Shown here piece by piece: positions 2,820 to 20,806 of a stretch of DNA of 22,031 nucleotides. The stretch covers positions 1-22,031 of the forward strand of contig CAYLQD010000063.1 of assembly GCA_964385685.1 (NCBI GenBank), written 5' to 3'. Both the position numbers and the translations under genes were made by a program. Position 1 is the stretch's first letter. Each line of letters starts with the position of its first letter. This DNA is from an uncultured Planctomycetota bacterium (GTDB taxonomy: Bacteria; Planctomycetota; PUPC01). The notes beneath the pieces are model-generated. The model did not search any database, was not told the origin of the DNA, and worked only from the letters and a program-made list of their open reading frames with translations.

Positions 2820-3425
2820 CTACGCGTAGTCGGTGGCTCTGTCAGGACGCTCGGCGCCGGCAATCGCGCCAAGGACGAAGCCGCGAAGGAAGCACGCAAA
2901 GAGCCACGCCTCGGCTTCACTGAAAGGATTCTCGGCGCCGGCGAAGGCAATGCCCCCGTGTTGGGTCACGTATTTCCTCGGCCTCTTTGTGTCCCGCATC
3001 AACTCATGCCCGACCTCGTGGGCGATGATTGCGAAGAACTTGGCCTGTGCTCTTTTGGCCCGCTTATCATCGTTGGCGGCCTCTCGCAGGATCTCGGCGT
3101 GGATGTCCTTGTCAATAACGATGGTCGGCTTGGCCCCCTTCTTGAGTATCGCAAGCCAGGAAACGTACCCACGAATGGGCAAGAGTTGGTCCGATACTGG
3201 AAGCCAGCTATCGATGGAAGCTTGCCTAGCTATGGACGTCCGCAGGCGCACAGGTCTCAGCCAGTCCCACGGAGCGAACGGTTCGTCGCGATGATACGTC
3301 TCGCCGACGACAAATTTGTGCGCCGCGTGCATGGCTCGGGCAACCGAACCGCGACCCTCGAGTTTCTTGAAGGTCTTAATCCATGCGTCGCGTTTGGGCG
3401 CGACGGGATCCGGCTTCCGAGTCAC
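2820..3425 (-). CDS. ImmA/IrrE-family (COG2856-like) HExxH zinc metallopeptidase
   Basis: 201 aa. Contains ...KRAQAKFFAIIAHEVGHELMRD..., i.e. an HExxH motif in the F-x-h-AHE-h-GH context typical of ImmA/IrrE peptidases, followed about 30 residues later by a Glu-rich helix (AENPFSEAEAWLFA) as expected for the third metal ligand. GTG start at 3425 is preceded by GGGGAG 5 nt upstream. The stop TAG of the upstream gene (3436-3438) overlaps this Shine-Dalgarno site, implying translational coupling. Confidence 0.6.
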   Translation of the reverse strand: MTRKPDPVAPKRDAWIKTFKKLEGRGSVARAMHAAHKFVVGETYHRDEPFAPWDWLRPVRLRTSIARQASIDSWLPVSDQLLPIRGYVSWLAILKKGAKPTIVIDKDIHAEILREAANDDKRAKRAQAKFFAIIAHEVGHELMRDTKRPRKYVTQHGGIAFAGAENPFSEAEAWLFACFLRGFVLGAIAGAERPDRATDYA

Positions 3426-4489: not shown

Positions 4490-5533
4490 TCAGCGCCCGA
4501 CGGTTTTGACGCCGGTTTTCTCGCTGGGGTCTTCGATCTCTTCGACGATGTTGTGGCCGGAGCCGAAGAGCTTCTTGCGCTGCTCTTGGGCGTCGCGCCA
4601 CTCCTCAGGACTGTACGTCTGGCCGGGCTGGGCGAACTCCGCGCGCTCGCTCCGCGGCGGGACGGGCCGCTCCTCGGGGCCGTCGTAGTCCTCCTTCGGC
4701 GTCAACTCCTCGCCCAGCCGCGTCGTGCCGTCGCGCTCGACTTCCTCGATGTAGTGGGCGCCGGCGGCGAACGAACGCGCGACGGCCAGGATGGCCCACG
4801 TCGCCTCCGGGCTGAACCCCAGGTCCATCATGACCGCGCCGGTCGCTCCGAGCATGTCGATGTCGACCGGCTCCGCGCTCGCCGCCTGCGCGGCCTTGAC
4901 GATCTCGTGCAGGAAGGCGACGTGCCGGCCCGCGACGCCGAGCGTCTCGGCGCGCGCGACCAGCCGCTTCGCGGCCGGGTCCCGCAGCATGAGGTCGGAG
5001 ACGCCGAGCGCCTCGCTGTCGAGGTTCTCCGCGACGAGCGCGGTCGCCATCTCCGCGGGCGTCTTGCCCTCCTCGCCGGCCCGCGCGAGATAATCGCGGA
5101 GCATGTTGCCGAAGGCCGAGAAGGCGCCGTAGGCGTGGCCGAACGCGAGGACGGACGCGCCGCAGGCCTGCGTGAGGAAGGTCTTCGAGCGGGCGACGAT
5201 CCGCGACATCGCGGCCGGCATCGACATCCCGTCCTCGAGCCCGAGGAGCATGACGCAGTTGAGCATCTGCTCCTCCTCGACAAGCGGGATCCGCGCCTGG
5301 AAATCGACGAAGAGGATGTCGACGAGCCCGTAGCCGCGCTCGACCAGCTCGGTCGTGTCGTAGCCGCGGGCGACGATGCGGTGCACGTTCTTGTAGGCGA
5401 TCTCCGAGACCCACCGGAACGGCTTCCGCTTCGTGTCCGGCGGGACCGTGCCAACTTCGCGCGTCGAGTAGTCGTAGGGCAGCCGCTCGTCGTCGAGGTT
5501 CCCGATGACCTTGTCGTCGTCTAGATGACCCAC
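4490..5533 (-). CDS. citrate synthase-family protein (divergent; citryl-CoA-lyase-like size), paralogue 1
   Basis: The region ...FRWVSEIAYKNVHRIVARGYDTTELVERGYGLVDILFVDFQARIPLVEEEQML... matches the conserved citrate-synthase N-terminal signature (t-IS-iDg..g.L.YRGY.I.dL.e...feEv.yLLl.G.LP...E). A later segment, AFGHAYGAF... LGVSDLMLRDPAAK, resembles the GFGH-x-VYK-x-DPRA region, but Ser replaces the catalytic His. The track ORF 4490..5752 carries an R/P-rich N-terminal run-in. I place the start at the GTG at 5531-5533 (VGHLDDDKVIGN...), with GGAAGGAG 10 nt upstream, overlapping the stop of the upstream paralogue by 13 bp. Confidence 0.5.
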   Translation of the reverse strand: MGHLDDDKVIGNLDDERLPYDYSTREVGTVPPDTKRKPFRWVSEIAYKNVHRIVARGYDTTELVERGYGLVDILFVDFQARIPLVEEEQMLNCVMLLGLEDGMSMPAAMSRIVARSKTFLTQACGASVLAFGHAYGAFSAFGNMLRDYLARAGEEGKTPAEMATALVAENLDSEALGVSDLMLRDPAAKRLVARAETLGVAGRHVAFLHEIVKAAQAASAEPVDIDMLGATGAVMMDLGFSPEATWAILAVARSFAAGAHYIEEVERDGTTRLGEELTPKEDYDGPEERPVPPRSERAEFAQPGQTYSPEEWRDAQEQRKKLFGSGHNIVEEIEDPSEKTGVKTVGR

Positions 5534-6507
5534 TGCCTGTACTCTCCTTCCTCTTTCTGCTTCTTCGCGTAGTCCTGCCGCTCGTTCTGGCTGGGGACGG
5601 GGCGGTCGTCGGGCCCGACGTACTCGATCATGCTGAGGTCGAGCATCTGGACCATCGGCTCGCGCTTCGACGCGGCCCAGGCGCGGCCGCGCTTCATCGA
5701 GTAGAGCGCGTGGGCGGCGCAACTGAACGCGCGGGAGACGCTGCCGATGCACCAGGCGGCGTTGGGCGCGAAGCCGAGATCGCAGAGGGCGGTGTTGCCG
5801 GCGCCGACGACGTTGACGCCGACGTGCGACCGGCCCTCGCGCTCGCGGCGCGCGTGGAAGTGCCGCTCGATGGCCCGCTGGAGTTCGAGATACACGCCGT
5901 TGACTCTCAGCTCCTCCTGCTTGAGGTGGGTCGGTTCCCCCCGCGGGTCCCCGTCGGTGTGCTGCGGCTGGCCGAGGCCCATCACGGGCCGCTTCGCGTC
6001 GAAGTACTCGTCGACGAGCGTCTTGCCGGTCTCATCGAGCGACTTGCCTTCGGCCCGCGCGCGTTCGAGGTGCTTGTTCATCATGTAGCCGTGCGCGGCG
6101 CCGGGCCCGTGGACGCCGCCGAACGTCATGATCGACGCGGCGACGGCGCAGGGCAGGTTGGGCCGGCCGGCGATGACGCCGAGGGCCGCGGCCGCGGAGG
6201 GCGACATCGAGTGCTCCATGAACTCGCCCATCTCGTACTTGAGCATCTCCTCCTCGTTCTCGGTCGGGATGCGGTTCTGGAAGAGGATGAACATCCCGTC
6301 GTAGAACGAGTAGCCCTCTTCGGCGAGGTCGCTCAGGTTGTAGCCGCGGAGGACGGTCTTCTCTTCCGTCTTGAAGGAGATACTCGTCTTGCGCCGGAAG
6401 AGCGGCCGGCGCTCCTTTTCCTCAGGCACCGAGACAGGACGGCGGGGCGGCCCCTCGGACCGGCGCCGCAAGCGAGGCCGTCGGATCTGGATCCCCATCA
6501 GTTTCAT
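5521..6507 (-). CDS. citrate synthase-family protein (divergent), paralogue 2
   Basis: ...TSISFKTEEKTVLRGYNLSDLAEEGYSFYDGMFILFQNRIPTENEEEMLKYEM... is a clear citrate-synthase N-terminal signature. GGVHGPGAAHGYMM resembles the GPLHGGANE region. MGLGQPQHTDGDPRGE resembles GFGHRVYK-x-DPRA, but with Gln at the catalytic His position. The paralogy with the 4490..5533 gene is evident by eye. The ATG at 6507 is preceded by GGAG 6 nt upstream. Confidence 0.55.
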   Translation of the reverse strand: MKLMGIQIRRPRLRRRSEGPPRRPVSVPEEKERRPLFRRKTSISFKTEEKTVLRGYNLSDLAEEGYSFYDGMFILFQNRIPTENEEEMLKYEMGEFMEHSMSPSAAAALGVIAGRPNLPCAVAASIMTFGGVHGPGAAHGYMMNKHLERARAEGKSLDETGKTLVDEYFDAKRPVMGLGQPQHTDGDPRGEPTHLKQEELRVNGVYLELQRAIERHFHARREREGRSHVGVNVVGAGNTALCDLGFAPNAAWCIGSVSRAFSCAAHALYSMKRGRAWAASKREPMVQMLDLSMIEYVGPDDRPVPSQNERQDYAKKQKEEGEYRQWVI

Positions 6508-6638
6508 GGTGCGGCTCCTCTTGTGTGAGTTCCCGGGCTTCCCGCGGCCAGCGGTGCCGGTCAGGCGATGGGCGCGCCGTGGTGCAGCGCAACGCGGTCG
6601 CTTGTCAGCGAGCCGGGCCGGCGCGTGCCTCTAACTCA

Positions 6639-6669
6639 ATTATAAGTCATTGTCGGCGCACGGGTGTCG
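6639..6669 (-). promoter_or_regulatory. candidate sigma-70 promoter for the citrate-synthase-like operon: TATAAT -10 with a weak CCGACA -35 at a 19-nt spacer
   Basis: The minus-strand sense reads ...ccgacacccgtgcgccgacaatgacTTATAATtgagttagagg.... This gives a perfect extended -10, about 130 nt upstream of the ATG at 6507. The -35 is poor. Confidence 0.3.
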
Positions 6670-6790
6670 GAAATGAGCGCGAAGGTGTGGTGGCTGCGCG
6701 TTCTCGTCGGCGGGGTGGTCCTTGGCCGCCGAGCGGGGCTCGGGGGCACTCGAGCGGCGCCTCATGTCTCATGTCCCACGGTCATGCATG

Positions 6791-6806
6791 TGTACCATAT
6801 GGTACA
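6791..6806. promoter_or_regulatory. perfect 16-bp palindrome TGTACCATATGGTACA (TGTA-N8-TACA), copy 1; candidate dimeric transcription-factor operator
   Basis: Exact inverted repeat in a comparatively AT-rich stretch of a 920-bp intergenic region. An identical copy lies 122 bp away. Confidence 0.5.
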
Positions 6807-6912
6807 TTAATAACGCATTTCTGCAGGAGACTCCGCATGCGTGTTATGTTCTAAGAGCATATTTTATCTAGTATTACGGAGCTGATCGGCGGGAACAGGA
6901 AGGCGTAGATTT

Positions 6913-6928
6913 TGTACCATATGGTACA
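6913..6928. promoter_or_regulatory. perfect 16-bp palindrome TGTACCATATGGTACA, copy 2
   Basis: Identical to copy 1. The interval between the two copies contains a further imperfect inverted repeat, AATAACGCAT-N18-ATGCGTGTTAT. Confidence 0.5.
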
Positions 6929-7286
6929 TAAACTGAGCCTTTCTGTTGCGGGGAAGGGCGAGCGACAAGAGGGAACTGCCTCGTCCTCTTGTTCGCTCCC
7001 GCCTTCGCCCTTCGACAAGCTGAGTGCCCGCGGAGGCGGGCAAGGTTCGGCGGACAAGTCGCGGACCCGGACGAAGTTCGGGCCACCCGGAGGCGGTGTG
7101 GCCTTCCCGCGGCTGCCGGTGTGGACGACGAACCATGCGAACTCGTGGGTGAAGACGAGCGCTTATTGAGGTCCATGTTGGTAATGGAATCGCGGCAGCT
7201 TATCAAGAGATTCTTCGCTGACGCTCAGAATGACAGAACTATAGGTCACACAATGAGACATGTCATCCTGAGCGAAGCGAAGTTCA

Positions 7287-7321
7287 CCCGCCCAAGGCGG
7301 GCTTGCCCGCCGCGCAGGCGG
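7287..7321. other. two adjacent GC hairpins with identical stems (CCCGCC-caa-GGCGGG and CCCGCC-gcgca-GGCGGG), 110-145 nt 3' of the flotillin gene
   Basis: Read directly from the sequence. No U-tract follows on either strand. They may act as a terminator or stabiliser for the 7432..9654 transcript. Confidence 0.3.
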
Positions 7322-7431
7322 GGACCTCTGTTGTTCCTCGCTGATGTTCCATTATCAGCATGGAGTTCAATAGAGCGGCGGCGCGGGCGGCGTTGAGGAG
7401 CTTGGTGCCCATGACGTCGCAGATGCCGGCG

Positions 7432-9868: not shown

Positions 9869-10849
9869 ATGGCACCTGCGAACGACGACCGGCCGCGGGG
9901 CGAAGGGCAGGGAACCCCTCCCGATCAGGACGACCGCGTCTCGACCGACCAGCTCGAAGACTGCTCCGCCTACCAGTATCCGCACGCCTTCATCAACAAG
10001 TCCGACCAGCCCATCGTCATCAAGGGGCTCGACCCGAAGTGGCACGAGCAGCTCACTCAGATGTACCTGGGCTACGAGCCCAAGGGCTCGTTCAGCGGCT
10101 TGCCGCCCCTCACGCCCGAGGCCTGCACGCGCTGGGTCGACGGCATGATCGCCCAGGCCGTCAACCTCATTGCGATGTCGTTCGAGGGCGGCGTCGTCGG
10201 CCACACCGCCATCTTTCCCTCGCCCGGGCGACGGTGCGAGATGCTCGTCGTTGTCTCGCCCCCCGACCAAAACCACGGCATCGGGACGGAACTCGTGCGC
10301 TGCACCGTCCACCTGTCGCACGCGCTCGGGTTCGAGCATATCTGGGCGTCGATCGAACTGAAGAACCTCCGATGCCGCCACGTTCTCAAGAAGTGCGGGT
10401 TCGAATGCCTCACGCCCACGAGCACCGACGAGTCGAAGCTCGAGCTGGACCTGCGCGGGTTCCACGACCCCAACCGGACGACCGTCTGTGAGGTCATGGA
10501 CCGGCACGTCATCACGATCCACAAGAACTGGTCGTGTCGCGACGCCGTCGAGATGTTCCTGAGCAGTCCGGTCGGCTCGCTGCCCGTTGTGAACGACCGC
10601 GACGAAGTCGTCGGGATCCTCTCGCAGACCGACCTCCTCGTGCCGGCCAACATCGACAAGCGGGTCGGCGATATCTGCACGCGGAAGGTCATCCGGGTCG
10701 ACGAGGATTGTTCGCTCGCCCGGGTGATTCACATCTTTCAGACGAAGAAGATCTGGTGCATCCCCGTGGTCGATATGGAAGGACGGCTGGCGGGGGTTGT
10801 CACGCGGGAGGACATCCTCGCCTACTTCTCCGACCGCAAGAAGAGGTAG
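9869..10849 (+). CDS. GNAT-family N-acetyltransferase fused to a C-terminal CBS-domain pair
   Basis: 326 aa. An acetyl-CoA-binding Q/R-x-x-G-x-G/A motif (DQNHGIGTELV) sits within ...EMLVVVSPPDQNHGIGTELVRCTVHLSHALGFEHIWASIELKNLRCRHVLKKCGFE. Two CBS-like repeats follow: VCEVMDRHVITIHKNWSCRDAVEMFLSSPVGSLPVVNDRDEVVGILSQTDLL and VGDICTRKVIRVDEDCSLARVIHIFQTKKIWCIPVVDMEGRLAGVVTREDILAYF. Confidence 0.6.
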   Translation: MAPANDDRPRGEGQGTPPDQDDRVSTDQLEDCSAYQYPHAFINKSDQPIVIKGLDPKWHEQLTQMYLGYEPKGSFSGLPPLTPEACTRWVDGMIAQAVNLIAMSFEGGVVGHTAIFPSPGRRCEMLVVVSPPDQNHGIGTELVRCTVHLSHALGFEHIWASIELKNLRCRHVLKKCGFECLTPTSTDESKLELDLRGFHDPNRTTVCEVMDRHVITIHKNWSCRDAVEMFLSSPVGSLPVVNDRDEVVGILSQTDLLVPANIDKRVGDICTRKVIRVDEDCSLARVIHIFQTKKIWCIPVVDMEGRLAGVVTREDILAYFSDRKKR

Positions 10850-12353: not shown

Positions 12354-14492
12354 CTACCTCCTTCTCTTGCGCGCCAATCCGATCCATCCGATCAGCAGCA
12401 GCCCCCACGCGCCCGGCTCGGGAATCGGCTCGCCGGTGCTAGGATCGACGACGACGAACTCGACGCCCGGCGTGTCGCTCTCCGGCTGCAGGTCCCACGT
12501 GTCGCCGAAGTCGATGTCGGCCCAGCCGGCGGCGTCGGACCACGCGTCGCCGCCCAGAGCGTAGTAGAGCGAGACATGCTCGCCCGGGGCGAGGAAGAAC
12601 ACGTCCTCCAGCAGAATATCGAGCGAGACGTTGAGGTCGACGCCGTTGGCCTGCGGGGTGACCACGAACGCGGAGTCGTACGCGGGGGCCTCGATGTCCA
12701 CCAACGGCATCACGAAATCGTCGTCGTCGCTGTCCGTGTTGAATACCGCGACCATGTACTGTCCAAGGCCCTCGTCGTAGAAGAGCTTGATGGTGGCATC
12801 GACCAGCGTCACTTCGGGGCTCGTCTCCGAGGCGGCCTGGGCGGTGAAGGCGAACTCCACCCTGCTGTCCTCTTCGCGGATGGACAGGGCGCCCGTGAGC
12901 AGCCAGCCGAGGTCGAAGTCGATGATTTCATCGCCGCCGACGGGCTCGAGTTGACTGACGAACGCGCCAGCACCCCAGGCGTGACGTGCGGTCGCTTCGG
13001 CGCCAAACGGGATGTACTCCCCCTCGGCGTACGCCTGGGCGGCGACCGAGCCGCCGCCGCCGAACGGGTTAATGGTCGCCCGGCCATGGCCCGAGGCGAC
13101 CGTCTGGGCGCCTTCGGTATGCTCGACGTCCACCGTCACGCCGTACGGGGGCGTATCGTCGGTGACGTCGAAGCTGTCGCCGTCCACTTCACCGGCCCTC
13201 GCACGGGCATAGGTGTCGTCGAGGTCGATGGTCTCGCCGGTCCCGCCGAGGGTCGCGGTGTAGACGGCGCTGCTCCCTTCGCCGTCCATGGTGAACGCGA
13301 CGGTGTCGCCGCGTACGCTCCGGTTGCCGATGCCGAATCCGGCCCAGTCGTAGCCGTTGAAGTCGTCGCCGCTGGCGGTCACCCGGTGCAGCGTGGCGCC
13401 CTCGAGGAAGTACAGGCCCATCGCGCCGTCGTCGTTACGGGTGGCCGTGAACGCGATGTTGTCGCCCCACCGCGACACGCCCTCCATCCCGATGCCGGTG
13501 AAGCCGCTGCCGTCTTCGGGGTCGGTGACGTCGTCGGGCACGGCCGTGGCAAGCGTGCCGCTATCGACCGTGACGATGACGCCGTTGGCACCCAGCGCCA
13601 CGTTGCCCTCGTGGACGCTGTAGCGGAGGAAGTTCCCCACCGGATTCCCGGTGTCGGGCACGATGTCCTGGCTGTCGACAATCTTCAGAAGGTCGCCGCC
13701 GGCCGTGTCCATCGAGTAGAGGCCGTAGCGGCCGACGTTGCTGAATCCGCCGAAGTAGATGCGGGTGCTGCCGCCGACCTCGGTGAACTGCGGATGGTAG
13801 TAGTGGAGGAACGTCTCGCCCGGCGCGTCCGGCACGGCCGCCGTGTCGTCCATGAATCGGGTGAGCGTGTCGGTCGAGTCGTTGAACAGGTAGAGCCCGT
13901 TCTGCGTCAGCGTGTGCGTCGCGGACGTTCCCGCGGCGAAGACCTGGCGGCGGCCGTACACGTCGGTCTGGGTGAACGACTCGAACGGAACGCCGTAGCC
14001 GGGCGCAATCGTCGCCAGGTCGGCGACGCGCGTGCCCGTTCCGCGGTACACGCTCGGCTGGCCGGTGTGAGTGGAGGGCGGATCGATGACATAGCCGTAC
14101 GCCGGGTACGTGCTGTCGGGCTTCTCGTCGAACGCGAAACTCCTCGGCTGATGAAGCAGCTCGCCCGATCCCGAGGGTGGGGCCTCCGTGGTCGTGTCGA
14201 AGACGACGCGGCCGGACAGCGCCATGTGGCTGTCGTAGAGCCCGTAGGTCCCGTCGCTCAGCCAGCCGGTGAAGGCGACGGTTTCGGCGGTCGACTCGTC
14301 GCTCAGAGCGGGGCCCATCCTGGCGTCCGAGACCTGGCGGAACGTCCCGCCTCCGCCGGCCGGCGCCGCCGACTCGCCCGCGATCCGCTTGAACACGAAG
14401 TCGGCCCGCGCGGGCGTCGCACACGCCAGCACGAGACCCGCCGCCACGCCCGACACGAACATCATCACCGCAACTTGCCTGAACATCTTCAT
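12354..14492 (-). CDS. PEP-CTERM sorting-domain protein 2 (large secreted protein, about 712 aa)
   Basis: C-terminus ...GEPIPEPGAWGLLLIGWIGLARKRRR*. The track ORF (to 14699) over-extends through the intergenic motif. The real start is ggaaGGAGATGAAGATGttc (ATG at 14492 or 14486), giving the signal peptide M(KM)FRQVAVMMFVSGVAAGLVLACATPARA. Confidence 0.7.
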   Translation of the reverse strand: MKMFRQVAVMMFVSGVAAGLVLACATPARADFVFKRIAGESAAPAGGGGTFRQVSDARMGPALSDESTAETVAFTGWLSDGTYGLYDSHMALSGRVVFDTTTEAPPSGSGELLHQPRSFAFDEKPDSTYPAYGYVIDPPSTHTGQPSVYRGTGTRVADLATIAPGYGVPFESFTQTDVYGRRQVFAAGTSATHTLTQNGLYLFNDSTDTLTRFMDDTAAVPDAPGETFLHYYHPQFTEVGGSTRIYFGGFSNVGRYGLYSMDTAGGDLLKIVDSQDIVPDTGNPVGNFLRYSVHEGNVALGANGVIVTVDSGTLATAVPDDVTDPEDGSGFTGIGMEGVSRWGDNIAFTATRNDDGAMGLYFLEGATLHRVTASGDDFNGYDWAGFGIGNRSVRGDTVAFTMDGEGSSAVYTATLGGTGETIDLDDTYARARAGEVDGDSFDVTDDTPPYGVTVDVEHTEGAQTVASGHGRATINPFGGGGSVAAQAYAEGEYIPFGAEATARHAWGAGAFVSQLEPVGGDEIIDFDLGWLLTGALSIREEDSRVEFAFTAQAASETSPEVTLVDATIKLFYDEGLGQYMVAVFNTDSDDDDFVMPLVDIEAPAYDSAFVVTPQANGVDLNVSLDILLEDVFFLAPGEHVSLYYALGGDAWSDAAGWADIDFGDTWDLQPESDTPGVEFVVVDPSTGEPIPEPGAWGLLLIGWIGLARKRRR

Positions 14493-14561
14493 CTCCTTCC
14501 CTCCTTTCACAAGTTTCACGTCCGGCCAAGTACCATCCGCACTCATTTCCTTCTTCTCAGC

Positions 14562-14588
14562 GCCTGCCCTGAGCCACGTCGAAGGGCC
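14562..14588 (-). repeat. ~27-nt recurring motif (sense GGCCCTTCGACGTGGCTCAGGGCAGGC), copy A. Other copies at 15704-15731 (B), 20106-20132 (C, inside the gene 8 coding tail) and 18968-18988 (D, inverted, overlapping the gene 7 stop)
   Basis: Near-identical strings read directly from the sequence. Contains an internal GCCCT...AGGGC stem. In copy C the same nucleotides encode the ...ALRRGSGRALGRKGRRR* tail of protein 8. In copies A and B the equivalent frame would read ALRRGSGQAL(R/K).RR(K/R) followed by a stop. Confidence 0.55.
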
Positions 14589-14604
14589 AGCATCGCGATT
14601 CTGC

Positions 14605-14680
14605 GCGACGGCAACGCCGTCGCGGGCGGCCTTCACCTCTACGGCTTCTCGCCGGTTTGGCCCGTGTTGGCCAAACCGGC
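14605..14680 (-). terminator. two strong hairpins 3' of PEP-CTERM gene 3: GCGACGGC-aac-GCCGTCGC (14605-14623) and a 12-bp stem GCCGGTTTGGCC-cgtgtt-GGCCAAACCGGC (14651-14680)
   Basis: Perfect stems read from the sequence. No U-tract follows, so intrinsic-terminator status is uncertain. The first hairpin is duplicated at 15748-15766, 3' of gene 4. Confidence 0.35.
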
Positions 14681-14720
14681 CCGGGCGGCTGATCGCCACA
14701 GCAATCAGCTTGCGGCCCTC

Positions 14721-15641
14721 CTACGAAAGGGCCGCCCGCCTCCTCCTCCGCAGCAGCAGGAGGGCCGCTATCAGCCCGAGCCCCGCGGGCTCGTGGACGG
14801 GCTCGCCGGCCAGGAAGTGGCCCGACTCCGACGTCCACGTGACGCCCTCGGGCACCTGCACCGGGCCGAGCGTTACGGTGTGGTGGTAGTGGACGCCCAA
14901 ATGAATCCCGCTCATGGCCAGCGGGTCCGGATTGACCCCCGCCGTCTCGGCGTCGGCCTGGATGGATGCGCTCATGTCGAACTCGGTAACCTTCTCGGTG
15001 TAGGAGAAGAAGGGCTCGATCGTCGTCCGTAGCTCGCCCTGCGTGTTGACCGTTCTGCCGCCGGGCGCCTCCACCAGGTCGACGATGTCCTGGAACGTCG
15101 TGATCCCGAGCGCCAGCCGCACCTCCGCGAGCAGGGCAAACCCCGTCACCGGCGGGCCGCCCGGATCCTGGAGAAGGGCCTCGACAAGGCCGGTGATCGT
15201 GTATGGAATCACGACGTCGACGCCCTCGGGATAGTTGCCCGGCGGCGTGGTGATGAGCAGCTTGTCGCGCATCTCCACGAACGAACTGGCGGTCACTCTC
15301 GACCAGCCGCCGGGGTATGCGGCGTTCTCAATGGCGGCGTATGCCCCCATCTCGGCCGTCCGCAGGTCGACAAGCCCATAGCCCTCGGCGATGTCCCCTT
15401 CAACCCCGGCGAGCGTGCCGTCGCCGACGAGGGTCGGCTCCTGGCTGAACTCCATCTCGTCGATAAACTGAATCTCTCCATCCGGGCCCGGGTCGACCTC
15501 TAGGTACATCATCCGCGAGGTGACGTGGGTCGTCTCGGCCACCGCGGCCGACGCGCACCAGGCGAGCACGGCGATCGCAACCGCCGCCGCGCAGCACGCC
15601 AGTGGCCGCAGCGGTCTTCCTGTGTTCCGCTCGTTCCTCAT
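14721..15641 (-). CDS. PEP-CTERM sorting-domain protein 3 (paralogue of protein 4)
   Basis: Real start MRNERNTGRPLRPLACCAAAVAIAVLAWCASAAVA, with its ATG at 15639-15641 preceded by GGAAGGAGGAGGaca. The track ORF extends to 15782 through the upstream motif. C-terminus ...HEPAGLGLIAALLLLRRRRRAALS*. Confidence 0.7.
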   Translation of the reverse strand: MRNERNTGRPLRPLACCAAAVAIAVLAWCASAAVAETTHVTSRMMYLEVDPGPDGEIQFIDEMEFSQEPTLVGDGTLAGVEGDIAEGYGLVDLRTAEMGAYAAIENAAYPGGWSRVTASSFVEMRDKLLITTPPGNYPEGVDVVIPYTITGLVEALLQDPGGPPVTGFALLAEVRLALGITTFQDIVDLVEAPGGRTVNTQGELRTTIEPFFSYTEKVTEFDMSASIQADAETAGVNPDPLAMSGIHLGVHYHHTVTLGPVQVPEGVTWTSESGHFLAGEPVHEPAGLGLIAALLLLRRRRRAALS

Positions 15642-15657
15642 TGTCCTCCTCCTTCCC

Positions 15658-15674
15658 GGCGCCCCCTTGGCGCC
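15658..15674 (-). promoter_or_regulatory. leader hairpin GGCGCC-ccctt-GGCGCC immediately 5' of the Shine-Dalgarno site of PEP-CTERM gene 3 (member of a recurring element)
   Basis: GGCGCC is self-complementary, so GGCGCC-N5-GGCGCC forms a 6-bp stem with a 5-nt loop. It lies roughly 1-6 nt 5' of the GGAGGAG-type Shine-Dalgarno site in the mRNA sense. Other copies: 16738-16754 (gene 4, loop gttgc), 20825-20841 (gene 8, loop gttgt), 21549-21565 (gene 9, loop gttgt) and a variant GCGCC-gcgcg-GGCGC at 17471-17485 (gene 5). Confidence 0.5.
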
Positions 15675-15812
15675 CGTCCCGTTCAACGCCTCCTCGTCTT
15701 CAACGCCTGCCCTGAGCCACGTCGAAGGGCCATCATCGCCAGCCGCGCGACGGCAACGCCGTCGCGTTGGCAGAATGGCCAAGAAGCCATTCGGCCAGCG
15801 GCCCGCTCGTGC

Positions 15813-16721
15813 TCAGCGTCTCTTTCTTCGCAGCAGCACGAGGGCCGCCATCAGTCCGAGCCCCGCCGGCTCTGGAACGGGCTCGCCGGCCAGGAAGAAG
15901 CCCGACTCCGACGTCCACGTGACGCCCTCCGGCACCTGCAGCGGCCCGAGCGTCACCGTGTGGTCGTAGTAGACGCCCAGATCGATCCCGCTCGCGGCCA
16001 GGGGATCCGGATCGACCCCCGCCGTCTCGGCCTGGGCATCGATGTACGCGGCCATGCCCATCTCGGTGACCTTCTCGGTGTAGGAGAAGAAGGGTTCGAT
16101 CGTCGTCCGCAGCTCGCCCTGCCGGTTGACCGTCACGACGCTCGGCGCCGACACCAGGTCGACGATATCCTCGAACGTGGTGATCCCCAGCGCCATCCTC
16201 ACCGCCGCGAGCATGTTGAACCCCGTCACCGGCCCGCCGAGCGGGTTCTGGAGGTCGGCCTGGAGAACGCCGGTGATCTGGTACGGGATGATGACGGGGA
16301 CTCCATCGGGGTAGTTGCCCGGCGGCGTGGTGATGAGCAGCGTGTCACGCATCTCCACGGACGAGCTGGCGGTCGCGCTCGACCAGCCGCTGGGGTACGA
16401 GGCGTTTTGGATGGCGGCGGACGCCCCCAGCTCGCCCGTCCGCAGGTCGACGCGCCCCTGGCCCTCGGCCATGTCGCCTTCGATCCCGGCGAGCATGCTG
16501 CCGCCGATCAGCATCGCTTCGTGGCTGAACACCGTCTCGTCAACGAACTGGAACTCGCCGTCCTCGCCCGGGTCGACCTCCAGGTACATCATCCGCGAGG
16601 TGATGTGGACTTGCTGCTGAGCCGCAGCGGACGCGCACCATGCGAGCAGGGCGATCACAACACCCGCCGCGCAGCACGCCAGCGGCCGCAGCGACCCTCC
16701 TGCATTTCTTCCGTTCCTCAT
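15813..16721 (-). CDS. PEP-CTERM sorting-domain protein 4 (paralogue of protein 3)
   Basis: MRNGRNAGGSLRPLACCAAGVVIALLAWCASAAA...PVPEPAGLGLMAALVLLRRKRR*. Same leader and Shine-Dalgarno site as gene 3. Extensive identity to gene 3 is visible at the DNA level. Confidence 0.75.
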   Translation of the reverse strand: MRNGRNAGGSLRPLACCAAGVVIALLAWCASAAAQQQVHITSRMMYLEVDPGEDGEFQFVDETVFSHEAMLIGGSMLAGIEGDMAEGQGRVDLRTGELGASAAIQNASYPSGWSSATASSSVEMRDTLLITTPPGNYPDGVPVIIPYQITGVLQADLQNPLGGPVTGFNMLAAVRMALGITTFEDIVDLVSAPSVVTVNRQGELRTTIEPFFSYTEKVTEMGMAAYIDAQAETAGVDPDPLAASGIDLGVYYDHTVTLGPLQVPEGVTWTSESGFFLAGEPVPEPAGLGLMAALVLLRRKRR

Positions 16722-16762
16722 TGTCCTCCTCCTTCCTGGCGCCGTTGCGGCGCCCGTTATGC

Positions 16763-17455
16763 CTACCGCCTTCTTCTTCTCGCCGTAATCATTGCCAGCC
16801 CGAGCAAGCCGAGGCCGGCGGGCTCGGGGATGGGCGGGCCGGCAGTCCGGATGTCGGAAAGGACGTACGTCCCGACGCCATTGTTGATTCCGAAGGTGAC
16901 GTAGAGCGCATGGGCGAAATCGGTCGGGCCGGCGATGAAATCGCTGTACAAGAACTCGTAGACGCCGGGGCCCGTGATGTGATGCGTAAGCTCCGAGTCG
17001 TTCACTGCCATGTCGCTCACCTTGGTGACCATGCTGTCCATCGGCCCGGCGCCGTCGGCTCGGGTCAAGGTGACCAGAATGCGGTCGTGCTGCCCGCCTT
17101 CCGTGAGGTCGACGTTGTTCAGGCCGGCTTGGCCCACGCCGTCGTAGAAGAACGCCGCGAGCGCTCCGCCACCATCGCCGGTGTTGTTGAACGCAATGAT
17201 CGTGGCGTCTGGGTCCGGTGTCAGTTGCAGGTCGGCGGTCACGGACGCAGTTGGCGCGCTACCCGCGTTGAGCGAGACCTCCCGCTCGGTGCCGACGATG
17301 CTGCTTGCCGGGCCCGTCTGGATGTCGGTGTTCGTCCCCGGGTGGCTCAGCGAAAACGGCCCCTCTTCGAAGTCATCAATCACGACCGCTTTGGCCGGCG
17401 CCGCCAACAGCACGACGACGGTACAACATAGCATCACGATCCCCGTCTTTGTCAT
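16763..17455 (-). CDS. PEP-CTERM sorting-domain protein 5 (about 230 aa)
   Basis: Start MTKTGIVMLCCTVVVLLAAPAKA (ATG at 17453-17455, with GGAGGAG 8 nt upstream). C-terminus ...PIPEPAGLGLLGLAMITARRRRR*. The track ORF over-extends to 17521. Confidence 0.7.
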   Translation of the reverse strand: MTKTGIVMLCCTVVVLLAAPAKAVVIDDFEEGPFSLSHPGTNTDIQTGPASSIVGTEREVSLNAGSAPTASVTADLQLTPDPDATIIAFNNTGDGGGALAAFFYDGVGQAGLNNVDLTEGGQHDRILVTLTRADGAGPMDSMVTKVSDMAVNDSELTHHITGPGVYEFLYSDFIAGPTDFAHALYVTFGINNGVGTYVLSDIRTAGPPIPEPAGLGLLGLAMITARRRRR

Positions 17456-17495
17456 CTTGTCCTCTCCTCCGCGCCGCGCGGGCGCTTCAGCTGCG

Positions 17496-18842
17496 TCACC
17501 TCCTTCGCCGTATGAATCCAAGCATCCCCAGGCCGATCAATCCCAGAGCGCCCGGCTCGGGAATGATGAGGTCTCGCATGGCCGACGCGTGCGACGAGAT
17601 CGCGGCGAGGGTCGATGCGTCGGTGTCGTAGACCGAATACCAGCCGGGCGTTTCGTGCGGCGGGTCGCCGATCCACTGCGGGACCGGATCGCCCGGGCGG
17701 CCCTCGCCGCCCCACGCCCAGAAGTTGTCGCCCGCAGCCGACCCGCCCGACGACGCGGACGCATAGACCGCGTCGAACATCGCGGCGTAGAACGCGTCGC
17801 GGTGCGACGTCGGCGCGGCCGGGTCGTGGTGGTCGGGCCCGGTCCAGCCGTCGCGCGCCAGGCCGAACTCCTCGAGCACAACGGGCTTGGCGAGGATGTT
17901 GAGCGCCTCCTGCTCGTGGGTCTGGAAGTAGGCGAGCGCCTGGGCTTCGGCCGCGGCGTAGGTTGTGGGATCGGTCGGGTTGTACCAGCCCCAGTTCTCC
18001 GGCCAGATGTGCGTCGTCGCGTAGTCGATCTTTTCGCCGTTGTGCGTCTCGACGAACGTCCGGTCCTCCCATCCGGCGAGCCACGTCTCGGCGCCGGTCT
18101 CGCCCTCGAAGCCGGTCGTCACGAGGTGGTTGGGATCGAGCGACTTGATGTACGCGGCGGTGTCGTCGATCCAGTCGGCGGGGAACCGCCGCGGCTCGTT
18201 GGCCAGCTCCCACGCGAAGATGGTCGGGTCGTCTTTGTACGCCTCCCCGTTCACGGTGTTGACGCGGCCAACGACCTCGTCGATGTGGTCGCGGAACCAC
18301 GTCTGGCACTGCGCGTTCGTGTAGAACTGCGCGCTGTAGTTCTGGAACGCGTTCCAGTCGCCGGGATAGGGGATCGATCCGCCGATATCCCACTGAACGT
18401 ATTGGGCCATGCCGCCGGACCAGTGCCAGAAGTTGTTGAGGACCATCACGGCCCGCATGTCGCGCTGGTTCATCTCGTCGAGCAGGTGGTCGAGCCCGCC
18501 GAAGACGGCCGGGTTGTAGACGCCGGGCGCGGTCTGGAGCGACGGGACGGCGCGGTAGGGCTCTGTGTCGGGTCCTTCGGAGCCGGCCAGGATGCGCAGG
18601 TTGGTGATGCCGGCGGCCTGGAGGCGGTCGAGTTCGCGGCTGAGGCGCGCGCGGTTGCCGTCTGGGCCGACGACGCCGAGGTTCATCCCCTGCCAGAGGT
18701 TCGCGCCGACGAAGTTGTAGGGCTGTCCGTCGAGTTCAAAGGCCACGCCGTTGACGGCGACGAACCCGAAGTTGTCGGCCCGCGCCATTACCGCCGAGGC
18801 CAGCAGCGCCCCGGCGATGACTATGGATAGACACTTGCTCAC
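17496..18842 (-). CDS. glycoside hydrolase family 5 endo-beta-mannanase-like enzyme carrying a PEP-CTERM sorting tail
   Basis: Signal peptide MSKCLSIVIAGALLASAVMARA (GTG start, with GGAG 9 nt upstream). It has ...IFAWELANEPR..., the GH5 catalytic-acid NEP motif in the WELxNEPR context typical of GH5 mannanases. It also has ...KPVVLEEFGL..., the nucleophile E in a TEFG-like context. C-terminus ...IIPEPGALGLIGLGMLGFIRRRR*. Confidence 0.65.
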   Translation of the reverse strand: MSKCLSIVIAGALLASAVMARADNFGFVAVNGVAFELDGQPYNFVGANLWQGMNLGVVGPDGNRARLSRELDRLQAAGITNLRILAGSEGPDTEPYRAVPSLQTAPGVYNPAVFGGLDHLLDEMNQRDMRAVMVLNNFWHWSGGMAQYVQWDIGGSIPYPGDWNAFQNYSAQFYTNAQCQTWFRDHIDEVVGRVNTVNGEAYKDDPTIFAWELANEPRRFPADWIDDTAAYIKSLDPNHLVTTGFEGETGAETWLAGWEDRTFVETHNGEKIDYATTHIWPENWGWYNPTDPTTYAAAEAQALAYFQTHEQEALNILAKPVVLEEFGLARDGWTGPDHHDPAAPTSHRDAFYAAMFDAVYASASSGGSAAGDNFWAWGGEGRPGDPVPQWIGDPPHETPGWYSVYDTDASTLAAISSHASAMRDLIIPEPGALGLIGLGMLGFIRRRR

Positions 18843-18983
18843 TGTAGTGACTCCGGCCAGGGAATCACGCCGCGCAAGGCGCGCCGCATCCTCTCATTGC
18901 GGCCCCCGAGGGGCCGTTCTCGATCTGTTCCACCCGCCCAAGCGGGTGCTCAGCTTCTTTTGCGTCGCCGCCCTTCGACGGGC

Positions 18984-19907
18984 TCAGCGTCTTCGCTGCC
19001 GCTTCGACAGCCCGATCGCTGCCAACCCGAGGAACCCGAGCCCGGCCGGCTCGGGGATGATGGTGAGGTCCAACGCAACGCCCCCCGGGCCCGAAAGCCC
19101 CGTCACGACGTCCTCGGCGTTGCTGCCGTCGAGATCCGCGCGCTGGATCGAGTTCAGGTCGCGATCGGCCCAGTACATCTTGCCCGCGGCCACGTCGAGC
19201 GCGATCCCACGGGGGTTCGGCTGCGACACCAGAAGATCCTCGACGTTGCTGCCATCGAGGTTCGCACGCTGGATCTTGTCCGTTGCGAAAGCCGTCCAGT
19301 ACACCTTGCCGCCGGCAGGGTCCACCGCGATCCCCCAAGCGTCCTCAATTCCGCTGCTCACCAGGGTCTCGACGTTACCGCCGTCCAGATCGGCGCGCCT
19401 GACCAGGTCGTCAGCACCCGCACCCTGCTGCTCGACCCAGTACATCTTGCCGTTGGTCAGGTCGAGGTCGATGGCAACGGGGACCAAGAGGCCGGTCGTT
19501 ACGAGGTTCTCCACGTTGCTGCCATCGAGGTCCGCGCGTCGGATCGCGTCCGCCCACGCCTCGGTCCAGTAGACCTTGTCCGCGGCCAGGTCGAGCGCGA
19601 CGCCCGCCGCGCCATCGGCGCCGGTGATCAGGTCCTGGACGTTGCTGCCGTCCAGATTCGCGCGCTGGACCTTGTCTGCGAGCTCGTCCGCCCAGTACAT
19701 CTTGCCCCCGGCACCATCCAGCGAGATTTCAGCCGGGACGTCCAGCCCTGTCGTTACCAGGTCCTCGACGTTCGAGCCGTCCAGGTCGGCGCGCTGGATC
19801 TTGTGCGCGTCATGGTCCGTCCAGTACACCTTGGCGGCCTGTGCGCGCGGCGCCGCGAACACCGCGACGCAAACCGTCACCACCAAACCCACGATTGCCT
19901 TCCTCAT
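18984..19907 (-). CDS. six-bladed YWTD (LDL-receptor class B-type) beta-propeller protein with a PEP-CTERM tail
   Basis: Six ~42-aa repeats of the form K(V/M)YW(T/A)D....IQRA(D/N)LDGSNVEDLVT.GL..P.GIALD. Start MRKAIVGLVVTVCVAVFAAPRAQA (ATG at 19905-19907, with GGAGG 8 nt upstream). C-terminus ...TIIPEPAGLGFLGLAAIGLSKRQRRR*. The track ORF over-extends to 19976. Confidence 0.65.
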   Translation of the reverse strand: MRKAIVGLVVTVCVAVFAAPRAQAAKVYWTDHDAHKIQRADLDGSNVEDLVTTGLDVPAEISLDGAGGKMYWADELADKVQRANLDGSNVQDLITGADGAAGVALDLAADKVYWTEAWADAIRRADLDGSNVENLVTTGLLVPVAIDLDLTNGKMYWVEQQGAGADDLVRRADLDGGNVETLVSSGIEDAWGIAVDPAGGKVYWTAFATDKIQRANLDGSNVEDLLVSQPNPRGIALDVAAGKMYWADRDLNSIQRADLDGSNAEDVVTGLSGPGGVALDLTIIPEPAGLGFLGLAAIGLSKRQRRR

Positions 19908-20077
19908 CTCTCCATCCTCCAAAAGGTTCCTCTGCTTCAACACCACGCAGGCGACCGCCGCCTGCGTCCGCTCCAACTCACCAGCGCCAGGCCGATGAGC
20001 CCAGCCCCCTTCGTCGTCGATTGGCTCGCATCACCTCCTTTCCGCGGGCGGCGGCTGTCATCCGGCCCGCCCGTCTC

Positions 20078-20806
20078 TCAGCGCCGTCTCCCCTTTCTTC
20101 CCAGTGCCCGTCCTGAGCCCCGTCGAAGGGCCAGCGCCGCCGGCCCGATCAGAGCCAGCCCGGCCGGCTCGGGGACGACGGGCGGTGGCGGGACGCCGTC
20201 ACCCGTTATCACAAAGGCGAGGTCGAGCGACTCGGCCGTGATCAGGTCGGGGTAACTCGATACGTCGGCGGTCTTCCAGCCCCAATTGCCGTGGGCAGCC
20301 GTCACGGAGATCCCCAGCCAGTAGGTGGTGCCCTCCTCCTGGAAGAACGGATCGGCGATGTTCGCAACGTTGTATTGATAGCACTCGGTATGGTCGTGCT
20401 GAGCGTAGTTACCCGAGCCCGGGTCGAACCAGCCCTGGTCGCCCGTACCGTAGAAGCGTTCCGCCCATTCCCCTGGGTAAAGGTCGCGCTGCCAGAGCAG
20501 GACGTCCGGTTTGCTCTGGTCATCCGCGTAGATGCTGAGGCGGATCTCGGAGAGCGTGCCCACAGTGTCGCCCTTCCATGAGCCCCAGAAATGGATGTCC
20601 GTGACCGGTCCGCTCGCCGTGCACGTCCAGTCGTCGGCCAGGACCGTGTCACCATACGCGGCCACGTCCCAGCCGTTCAGGTCGGGCAGTTGCGGAAAGT
20701 GCATCTTATGCCCGTCGCCGGGGTCCCAGTCGGCGCGGGCCGCCGCAGCGACCAACGCAACGGCCGCGAGCACAACCGCCGCTCCGCCGATAGCCTTCGT
20801 CTTCAT
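20078..20806 (-). CDS. PEP-CTERM sorting-domain protein 8 with an unusually extended basic tail
   Basis: Start MKTKAIGGAAVVLAAVALVAAAARA (ATG at 20804-20806, preceded by the GGCGCC hairpin and a GGAGGAG Shine-Dalgarno site). C-terminus ...VVPEPAGLALIGPAALALRRGSGRALGRKGRRR*. The track ORF over-extends to 21025. Confidence 0.65.
   Translation of the reverse strand: MKTKAIGGAAVVLAAVALVAAAARADWDPGDGHKMHFPQLPDLNGWDVAAYGDTVLADDWTCTASGPVTDIHFWGSWKGDTVGTLSEIRLSIYADDQSKPDVLLWQRDLYPGEWAERFYGTGDQGWFDPGSGNYAQHDHTECYQYNVANIADPFFQEEGTTYWLGISVTAAHGNWGWKTADVSSYPDLITAESLDLAFVITGDGVPPPPVVPEPAGLALIGPAALALRRGSGRALGRKGRRR

Follow-up and report, generated by a model that had tools for sequence, protein, structure and literature searches.

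The stretch of DNA analysed here (the window) comprises the 22,031 nucleotides (nt) of contig CAYLQD010000063.1 from an uncultured member of the Planctomycetota, a metagenomic contig with a GC content of 65-69%. Some ten PEP-CTERM genes are arrayed on its minus strand between approximately 10.9 and 22 kb, and a motif of 27 nt recurs in this array. On this strand the site of GGCCCTTCGACGTGGCTCAGGGCAGGC is present without mismatch at 14562-14588 and 15705-15731 and with three mismatches at 20106-20132, in line with a preliminary description of the locus. Shuffled sequences yielded 0.00 matches, and three copies on the same strand are not expected by chance. As outlined below, the 27-mer is probably the local copy of a generic miniature insertion element of approximately 24-27 nt, and it is not a regulatory signal of PEP-CTERM genes. 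The window is contained in independent ENA, JGI and Logan assemblies, among which the fully aligned locus L005 is 100% identical across 13.6 kb. The eight loci retrieved via proteins of the window represent the same organism, the identity having been checked for L005 alone.

Copy 1, UGGCCCUUCGACGUGGCUCAGGGCAGGCG (14561-14589, minus strand; exact match; model R1, 35 bits, E 8e-7), lies within a pseudo open reading frame (ORF) at 14543-14593 and 69 nt before the ATG at 14492 of gene 2 (12354-14492). The identical copy 2 (15704-15732, minus strand; exact match) is located 63 nt before the ATG at 15641 of gene 3 (14721-15641), and both spacings agree with those given initially. The same frame is open in both intergenic copies, reading MLALRRGSGQALRRRK and MMALRRGSGQALKTRRR, respectively, each followed by a stop codon, as had been proposed. 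Likewise, the suspected N-terminal over-extension was found for the ORFs 12354-14699 and 14721-15782, which run through the motif as GPSTWLRAG. Public annotation was misled as well, given that for the identical contig one annotation reports a protein of 760 amino acids and another one of 712.

Copy 3 (20105-20133, minus strand; three mismatches; 33.3 bits with the covariance model) is coding, as originally stated, and falls within the final 18 codons of an ORF that ends at 20078 and reads LALRRGSGRALGRKGRRR before its stop codon. Copy 4 (18968-18995, plus strand), CCGCCCTTCGAC-GGGCTCAGCG, is inverted and truncated, with a spacer shorter by 1 nt and no 3′ tail. The claim of an inverted copy at the end of gene 7 thus holds in that the copy is real (covariance model, 25.2 bits, E 2e-4) and overlaps the stop codon; however, it is partial, and no ungapped motif match with up to eight mismatches was obtained at this site. 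Gene 7 (18984-19907) has as its stop codon the TGA in copy 4 (18984-18986, minus strand); the inverted, truncated unit would therefore supply this codon. Gene 7 itself (minus strand) encodes a PEP-CTERM protein in which the tail is preceded by beta-propeller-like internal repeats, five or six in number and each about 126 nt long (KxYWTD..IxRAxLDGSNxExLV).

Gene 8 (20078-20806, minus strand) encodes a DUF7901 (PF25470) protein with a PEP-CTERM tail that is broken by copy 3. We observed an in-frame insert of 24 nt, corresponding to eight codons (LRRGSGRA or ALRRGSGR, within 20105-20131), that separates the hydrophobic helix of the tail from its basic cluster. All three parts of the PEP-CTERM sorting domain (TIGR02595), a PEP motif, some 14 hydrophobic residues and a C-terminal Arg-rich cluster, are present (VPEP-AGLALIGPAALAL-..GRKGRRR at the C-terminus), but they are interrupted, and the full-length protein gave no NCBIfam match at E ≤ 0.01. 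After removal of LRRGSGRA, the protein ends in PEPAGLALIGPAALALGRKGRRR, a standard tail. Correspondingly, the E-values obtained with PEP-CTERM family profiles amount to 0.0009-0.0012 without the insert as compared to 0.027-0.097 with it (roughly 10- to 80-fold better), and the alignment reaches the last residue of the profile, whereas with the insert it ends just before the inserted residues, at residue 49 of the 64-residue C-terminal segment. Nearly all of the 119 best homologues of gene 8 (the top one 54% identical; Planctomycetota or Phycisphaerae where the source gives a name) terminate in LDLAFVITPEP-helix-RRR(R), and the string RRGSG occurs in none of them (0/119). These sequences show that the PEP-CTERM tail of gene 8 acquired one unit as an in-frame insertion. 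The interrupted sorting signal probably still works, since the insert provides RR right after the helix and GRKGRRR remains C-terminal.

These data bear on the earlier suggestion that the intergenic copies are relics of longer ancestral tails. According to this explanation, the motif would be ancestral coding DNA from a PEP-CTERM subfamily with long tails, gene ends would have decayed into the intergenic copies, and no mobile element would be involved. The explanation accounts for the same frame being open in all three copies and ending in a basic cluster and a stop codon, as well as for the resemblance of the copy flanks to each other and to other tails of the array. However, the extra residues are absent from all 119 homologues, the tail of the paralogous gene 5 lacks exactly this segment, and the identical nucleotide string recurs across many phyla, both between genes and, read in other frames, inside unrelated ones. 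We therefore assign this explanation a negligible probability, the lowest of those considered here. What stands of the suggestion is that the sequence around copy 2 does show homology to the 3′-end of gene 5 and to the 5′-UTR (untranslated region) of gene 4; what does not is the ancestry of the longer tail, the extended tail being a 24-nt insertion into a normal one.

The preliminary description further requires a correction in that copies 1 and 2 are not independent, both being parts of one tandem duplication. Genes 3 and 4 (14721-15641 and 15813-16721, minus strand) are tandem PEP-CTERM paralogues, 82.8% identical and offset by 1080 nt. Copy 2 is embedded in a dead PEP-CTERM tail fragment (approximately 15683-15745), the uninterrupted counterpart and homologue of which is the 3′-end of gene 5 (16763-16815, minus strand; GLAMITARRRRR and stop codon). 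On either side of the motif, the copy 2 module matches the gene 5 end and the 5′-UTR of gene 4; the gene 5 tail reads GGCTGGCAATGAT-TAC-GGCGAGAAGAAG.. as compared to GGCTGGCGATGAT-GGCCCTTCGACGTGGCTCAGGGCA-GGCGTTGAAGACG.. in the module, GGCG coming after TAC and after GGCCCTTCGACGTGGCTCAGGGCA, respectively. The upstream part of the module contains the same palindrome as the copy 1 module. Of the two intergenic copies, one at least is thus located in the dead remnant of a PEP-CTERM tail, probably left by the tandem duplication, and copy 1 would reside in a similar fragment. As the junction of the duplication is located inside PEP-CTERM tail sequence, growth of the array by unequal crossover between tails is suggested.

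The GC-rich palindrome, CGCGACGGCGTTGCCGTCGCG, is present twice on the minus strand. At 14604-14624 it follows the stop codon of gene 3 and precedes copy 1 by 13-14 nt; at 15746-15766 it lies between the stop codon of gene 4 and copy 2. Situated 55-95 nt past the stop codons of both genes and devoid of a T-run, it may serve as a terminator or stabiliser hairpin.

In addition, the flanks of copy 3 resemble those of copies 1 and 2 past the stop codon. In the simplest scenario, one tail would have gained the insert, and tail-plus-spacer modules would then have been shuffled by unequal crossover, so that all three forward copies possibly derive from a single insertion. Tandem duplication combined with unequal crossover in the gene array would likewise have generated the dead tail fragment around copy 2. 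Alternatively, separate insertions may have occurred into similar tail DNA rich in GCC-CTG, codons akin to the GGCCCT end of the element.

The motif is widespread beyond the window. In a scan comprising one genome per species, the 19-base pattern CCCTTCGACGNGGCTCAGG was found in at least 119 stretches. Among the 80 match titles listed, isolates included, at least 20 phyla are represented, comprising Chloroflexota, nine Patescibacteria lineages, Acidobacteriota, Planctomycetota, Pseudomonadota, isolates of Actinomycetota, Spirochaetota, Cyanobacteriota, Nitrospinota and Dependentiae, and the GC content of the matched loci ranges from 0.34 to 0.74. One cyanobacterial metagenome-assembled genome (Geitlerinema, L079) carries the element, as does one of Rickettsiales among about 80 diverse taxa. 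Further carriers include Dehalococcoidia CBDBHA010000002.1, Latescibacterota OZ252100.1 and the isolates Acidovorax sp. Leaf78 and Agromyces sp. NPDC058484. The full 27-mer GGCCCTTCGACGNGGCTCAGGRCRGGC was present in more than 120 metagenomic stretches, and the 19-27-mer in more than 240 places in genomes and metagenomes, with unrelated flanks. By our own estimate, roughly 20-90 chance matches to the 19-mer are expected in 596 Gb. Raw counts therefore prove little by themselves, and the case rests on conserved additional bases and on arrays. Among the genome matches listed, ACAGGC or GCAGGC comes next outside the search pattern in 35 of 121, and the first base after the pattern is a purine in 94%. 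Because bases beyond the pattern are conserved even though the flanks are unrelated, we consider the elements homologous rather than chance matches. The units occur singly, in head-to-tail arrays with a period of 24 nt (L018, L105, L131, L191 and others) and as inverted pairs (L035, L050, L096, L009).

This distribution is the outcome that the preliminary description had itself named as refuting it: the motif is a generic repeat in many unrelated genomes, and outside the window none of 265 distinct copies is convincingly preceded by a PEP-CTERM-like segment. It also bears on the possibility that the motif is a cis-regulatory site specific for PEP-CTERM genes, e.g., a sigma-54 promoter, into which gene 8 reads through. 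Such a promoter motif has been described approximately 71 nt upstream of proteobacterial PEP-CTERM genes and never inside coding regions; it consists of TGGCAC-N5-TTGCW together with an upstream 17-nt motif ending in TTTACA, and is linked to PrsK/PrsR/PrsT and found solely in Proteobacteria (Haft et al. 2006, PMC1569441). The present motif resembles it in its distance from PEP-CTERM start codons, and TGGCTCAGGGCAGGC, 63-69 nt ahead of two of them, fits GG-N10-GC. However, this fit is minimal, the consensus differs, the -12 element is AGGC instead of TTGC, and no TTTACA-type motif was found in any of the four upstream regions. To our knowledge, some of the phyla carrying the element are largely devoid of sigma-54, which likewise counts against a promoter of this kind. 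Moreover, the same sequence is found inside coding regions, and the host is a planctomycete whereas the PrsK/PrsR system is proteobacterial (PMC1569441). With the sequence fitting only minimally and being distributed in the wrong way, we rejected a sigma-54/PrsR-type promoter and regard a PEP-CTERM-specific regulatory site in general as highly improbable. The link between motif and PEP-CTERM thus reflects local history and not function, given that a copy of a widespread repeat happened to lengthen one sorting tail here.

Evidence for insertion comes from copies inside genes. Low-GC genomes, in which ORFs are unambiguous, contain the motif within long ORFs. The insert is covered by the Pfam envelopes of a RecG-like DEAD helicase, CysRS, a radical-SAM enzyme, PurM, PurL, NadA and RpoC; in a superoxide dismutase it occupies the linker between the two Pfam domains, and in a CCA/poly(A) polymerase it is present in reverse orientation between two matched stretches of one domain. 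At least ten in-frame copies inside genes were verified, the inserts being stop-free multiples of three, and all three forward frames (GPSTxLRxG, ALRRGSGQA, PFDxAQG) as well as one reverse frame (LSxVEG) are used. When 256 copies were assigned to crude ORF-based classes, 76 were coding-like (49 sense, 27 antisense) and 34 clearly non-coding, the context of the remainder being ambiguous in high-GC DNA. The RpoC gene of a genome with 37% GC (L108) harbours two in-frame copies (2871-2899, ..KEPFDAAQGKLKE.., and 3012-3040, ..KLFDTAQSKPE..), and a third copy is located about 2 kb upstream of this pair.

The purM genes of Dehalococcoidia (L133, L263-L266) revealed three different sites that are filled or empty among lineages, each insert being exactly 24 nt in length. 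At site 1, CTGGGA/CGC corresponds to CTCGG-CCCTTCGACGGGGCTCAGGACAGG-CCGC; the query shares the insert only with a relative at 93% identity, and none of the 38 homologues inspected that come next in similarity (≤81% identity) contains it. At site 2, GATGGC/CTCGGC corresponds to GACGGC-CCTTCGACAGGCTCAGGACAGGCT-CTCGGC. In L265, a second 24-nt unit is nested in the first one at this site. Such a nested or duplicated unit at one purM site gives rise to a 16-residue insert (PTTLRQGSGQAGSGQR). Site 3 is filled in reverse orientation (AAG-CCTGTCCTGAGCTCAGTCGAAGGG-CCTGTCCTGGGC). The covariance model detected no copy in the empty PurM allele L263. At the PurM junctions, the target and the end of the element are identical over 2-9 nt, which could reflect a short target duplication or microhomology.

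Comparison of the copies revealed a hairpin with an invariant core, TTCGAC-N2-4-GCTCA. The loop, TCGAC-N2-4-GCTC, is 11-13 nt long; the stem is formed by the first T and the last A of the core plus three to four outer bases, resulting in 4-5 base pairs and a unit of 24-29 nt. The 3′ tail is semi-conserved (RCAGGC or YGARCGG) and falls into the classes CAGGC, CGAACGG and TGAGCGG. A loop-only pattern, TTCGAC-N2-4-GCTCA, with the previously searched variant left out, yielded 148 further family members, in which the three bases on either side of the core pair with frequencies of 0.93, 0.90 and 0.68 as compared to 0.79, 0.62 and 0.48 after shuffling. The stem types CCC/GGG, TCC/GGA, TGG/CCA, GGC/GCC, TGC/GCA, CAT/ATG and GGT/ACC interchange. 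In an alignment of 80 independent copies and three window copies, the three variable pairs beside the invariant T-A pair are formed in 90, 83 and 72%, with swaps between CG, GC, UA and AU. The covariation score is 0.372 as compared to 0.152 ± 0.017 in shuffles (0 of 500 reach it) and does not exceed 0.156 when the partners are slid. The notion of a structured element shared by coding and non-coding DNA was therefore upheld, as the stem covaries and both contexts are occupied.

C.A and A.C account for most of the mismatches at the outer pairs (51 of 122 at one pair; 21 versus five G.T at the next; 10 versus two in the alignment). As these correspond to G.U or G.T wobbles on the complementary strand, the folding strand is suggested to be 5′-GCCTGYCCTGAGC-N-GTCGAAGGGC-3′, which at window copies 1-3 is antisense to the PEP-CTERM genes. 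An extended outer stem was rejected, at least six of eight further pairs being formed in about 11% of CCCT-type copies as compared to 4.6% by chance.

A known RNA family was likewise rejected. Rfam returned nothing at the motif in the window at E ≤ 1, and for eight copy-rich loci chance-level matches to miRNA models below the gathering score, the sub-threshold models in window and loci being ASdes, mir-6012, mir-575 and BjrC174. Weak matches of mir-6012 (35 bits, E 0.007) and mir-575 fall on inverted or tandem pairs of the element (L075, 7022-7098; L018, 3257-3333), and the mir-6012 consensus contains CAGCCUGUCGAACCC. ARAGORN detected neither tRNA nor tmRNA in the window. The 5′-end of 16S rRNA (GGCTCAGGACGAAC) and the 5′ region of tmRNA (UUCGACGGGG) each appear to have 10-14 nt in common with some variants. 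As the register does not hold across the entire unit and the match is limited to some of the tail variants, we treat this as coincidence and rejected a derivation from a universal RNA.

The covarying stem raises the question of whether the motif is a selected structured nucleic-acid element kept by its hosts for a function, e.g., as a transcript 3′-end or stability element, as an antisense or DNA-level protein-binding hairpin, or as a replication or repair signal, with the intragenic copies being tolerated by-products. Covariation around an invariant loop, the constancy of the loop sequence across phyla and the position of all four window copies at gene junctions of one co-directional array would fit such a role, as would the perfect conservation of copies 1 and 2 and the adjoining palindrome between diverged duplicates. 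In contrast, unrelated housekeeping genes contain the element in all three forward frames and in reverse orientation, close homologues without it show no visible compensation, and tandem arrays and nested copies are found. Moreover, folding stability is not in excess, the stem mismatches indicate the strand antisense to the window genes, and neither the window nor the eight copy-rich loci match an Rfam family. On balance, we consider host-selected function unlikely, albeit less so than either of the explanations centred on PEP-CTERM genes.

Taken together, these results favour a generic miniature insertion element. The following observations weigh against this interpretation. First, thermodynamic support is absent: the structure prediction called for at the outset gave single-sequence folding no more stable than that of GC-matched shuffles (z +0.5 to -1.3), and the case for a structure thus rests on covariation. 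Second, palindrome and motif differ at 0 of 53 positions between the two modules, whereas the 13-nt spacer differs at five (Fisher p 1.4e-4). The difference points to constraint, to gene conversion or to a recent re-insertion; copies 1 and 2 as well as the palindrome look constrained, which could mean function rather than junk. Third, an element of the same sequence across phyla would demand a very broad vehicle if it were selfish, and viruses and plasmids rarely carry it. A plasmid or phage vehicle was rejected, with 15 matches in 2.9 million viral contigs and no BLAST match to plasmids or phages at E ≤ 0.01 for a 51-nt query of two units, a threshold that a single unit probably cannot reach. 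Fourth, no transposase-like ORF family recurs within about 4 kb of the copies at 239 loci (each up to about 14 kb around copies), and an associated transposase at these loci was rejected after all-against-all clustering of their 5104 ORFs, which gave common families and clusters of translated repeats only. Fifth, a clean target-site duplication is absent, the identity of 2-9 nt at the PurM junctions being ambiguous. Finally, the element counts are lower bounds, and the raw numbers are not decisive.

If the motif is indeed a miniature insertion element, it would appear to be non-autonomous and might be copied into sites that have 2-9 nt in common with its ends. The hairpin might form in single-stranded DNA, on the strand complementary to the one quoted here. 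Going further, we tentatively suggest, as a possibility we still hold doubtful, that a pan-bacterial 24-nt hairpin mobile element without a dedicated transposase is copied by host replication or repair at microhomology and has repeatedly added 8-residue peptides to essential proteins (RpoC, an aminoacyl-tRNA synthetase, purine enzymes) from Patescibacteria to Actinomycetota. If this holds true, the element would be a general, previously unrecognised source of in-frame insertions and deletions and of spurious ORF calls.

Apart from the PEP-CTERM array, the window contains a weak, degenerate member of the family, UCGCCCUUCGAC-AAGCUGAGUGCCCGCG (7005-7032, plus strand; covariance model, 17.6 bits, E 0.014), in a gene-free stretch distant from the PEP-CTERM genes. 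This stretch comprises 924 nt without a called gene (6508-7431) between a citrate-synthase-like gene and a Band 7 gene. The adjacent ORFs 4490-5752 and 5521-6507 (minus strand) both match the C-terminal domain of citrate synthase and overlap by about 230 nt as listed; due to this overlap, the upstream start is probably over-called. A marginal match to the family (5660-5688, E 0.09) lies inside the overlap. In addition, the ASdes small RNA model matches 10496-10554 (minus strand) with 27.5 bits as compared to a gathering score of 40, opposite to the GNAT-CBS gene at 9869-10849, probably by chance.

For the window, these results remove a false lead, as the extended PEP-CTERM tail and the upstream motif do not constitute a new sorting or regulatory signal. 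The element accounts for two over-extended gene calls and for one PEP-CTERM domain missed by hidden Markov models. It is small enough to evade repeat finders and common enough to corrupt start-codon calls and to create 'hypothetical proteins', and essential enzymes across phyla gain 8-residue loops from it. Provided that no dedicated transposase is involved, the filled and empty alleles would offer a direct handle on the copying of very short sequences in bacterial genomes, a question posed likewise by CGTC-type repeats and the small dispersed repeats of cyanobacteria.

A literature search by encoded peptides, DNA strings and keywords yielded no description of the element. Its translations (PFDKLRAN, LRQAQGER, PFVLSLSKGE and similar) are presumably familiar as 'hypothetical protein' contaminants, and the element may therefore be known informally. 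Among known families, it has features in common with the small dispersed repeats of 21-27 nt that Elhai and co-workers reportedly described in 2008 in heterocystous cyanobacteria. These repeats, some of which form hairpins, are said to be confined to cyanobacteria, to insert into one another, to lack an associated transposase and to have been judged mobile because orthologues were compared. In these respects, the 24-nt inserts, the nested unit in L265 and the filled and empty orthologous sites of the present element are similar. Rickettsia palindromic elements measure roughly 100-150 bp and are not known outside Rickettsia; in contrast, the present element comprises 24-27 nt (24-nt inserts) and occurs in many phyla. 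Both are in-frame palindromic inserts in genes that are probably still functional (Rickettsia elements as cited in PMC3733652).

Repetitive extragenic palindromes (REPs), REPINs and the palindromic repeats tagged with GTAG or CGTC (Di Nocera et al. 2013, PMC3733652; Bertels & Rainey 2011, PMC3116915) resemble the present element in being short GC-rich stem-loops with many copies that occur singly, as inverted dimers and in clusters. REP-type repeats are located mostly at gene ends and some of them inside genes, including replication and repair genes, and the present element enters genes as well. The peptides it encodes are absent from the published table of intragenic REPs (PMC3733652). Like the element, the CGTC class has no known transposase. 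The REPs mobilised by RAYTs go with a RAYT or IS200/IS605-type transposase gene flanked by copies; around the present element, the 239 loci showed no recurring transposase-like ORF family. However, REPs are mainly extragenic and specific in sequence for a species or genus, whereas 76 of 256 copies of the present element are coding-like and at least 20 phyla are involved; moreover, it forms head-to-tail arrays and crosses phyla. The element is a GC-rich imperfect palindrome of 24-29 nt, which lies in the 20-40 nt range of REPs, but its long conserved loop is atypical. With respect to the definition of REPs (PMC3733652), the unpaired GTAG tag at one end of the stem is absent, and CGTC/TGTC (YGTC) is found only in the loop (..GCC-N-CGTCGAAGG..) and not at the foot of the stem. 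Likewise, its stem of 4-5 base pairs and conserved loop of 11-13 nt differ from the stems of 8-9 base pairs and loops of 4-5 nt in CGTC repeats. The element thus belongs with the small palindromic repeats, without their defining tags and with a short stem and a long invariant loop of its own.

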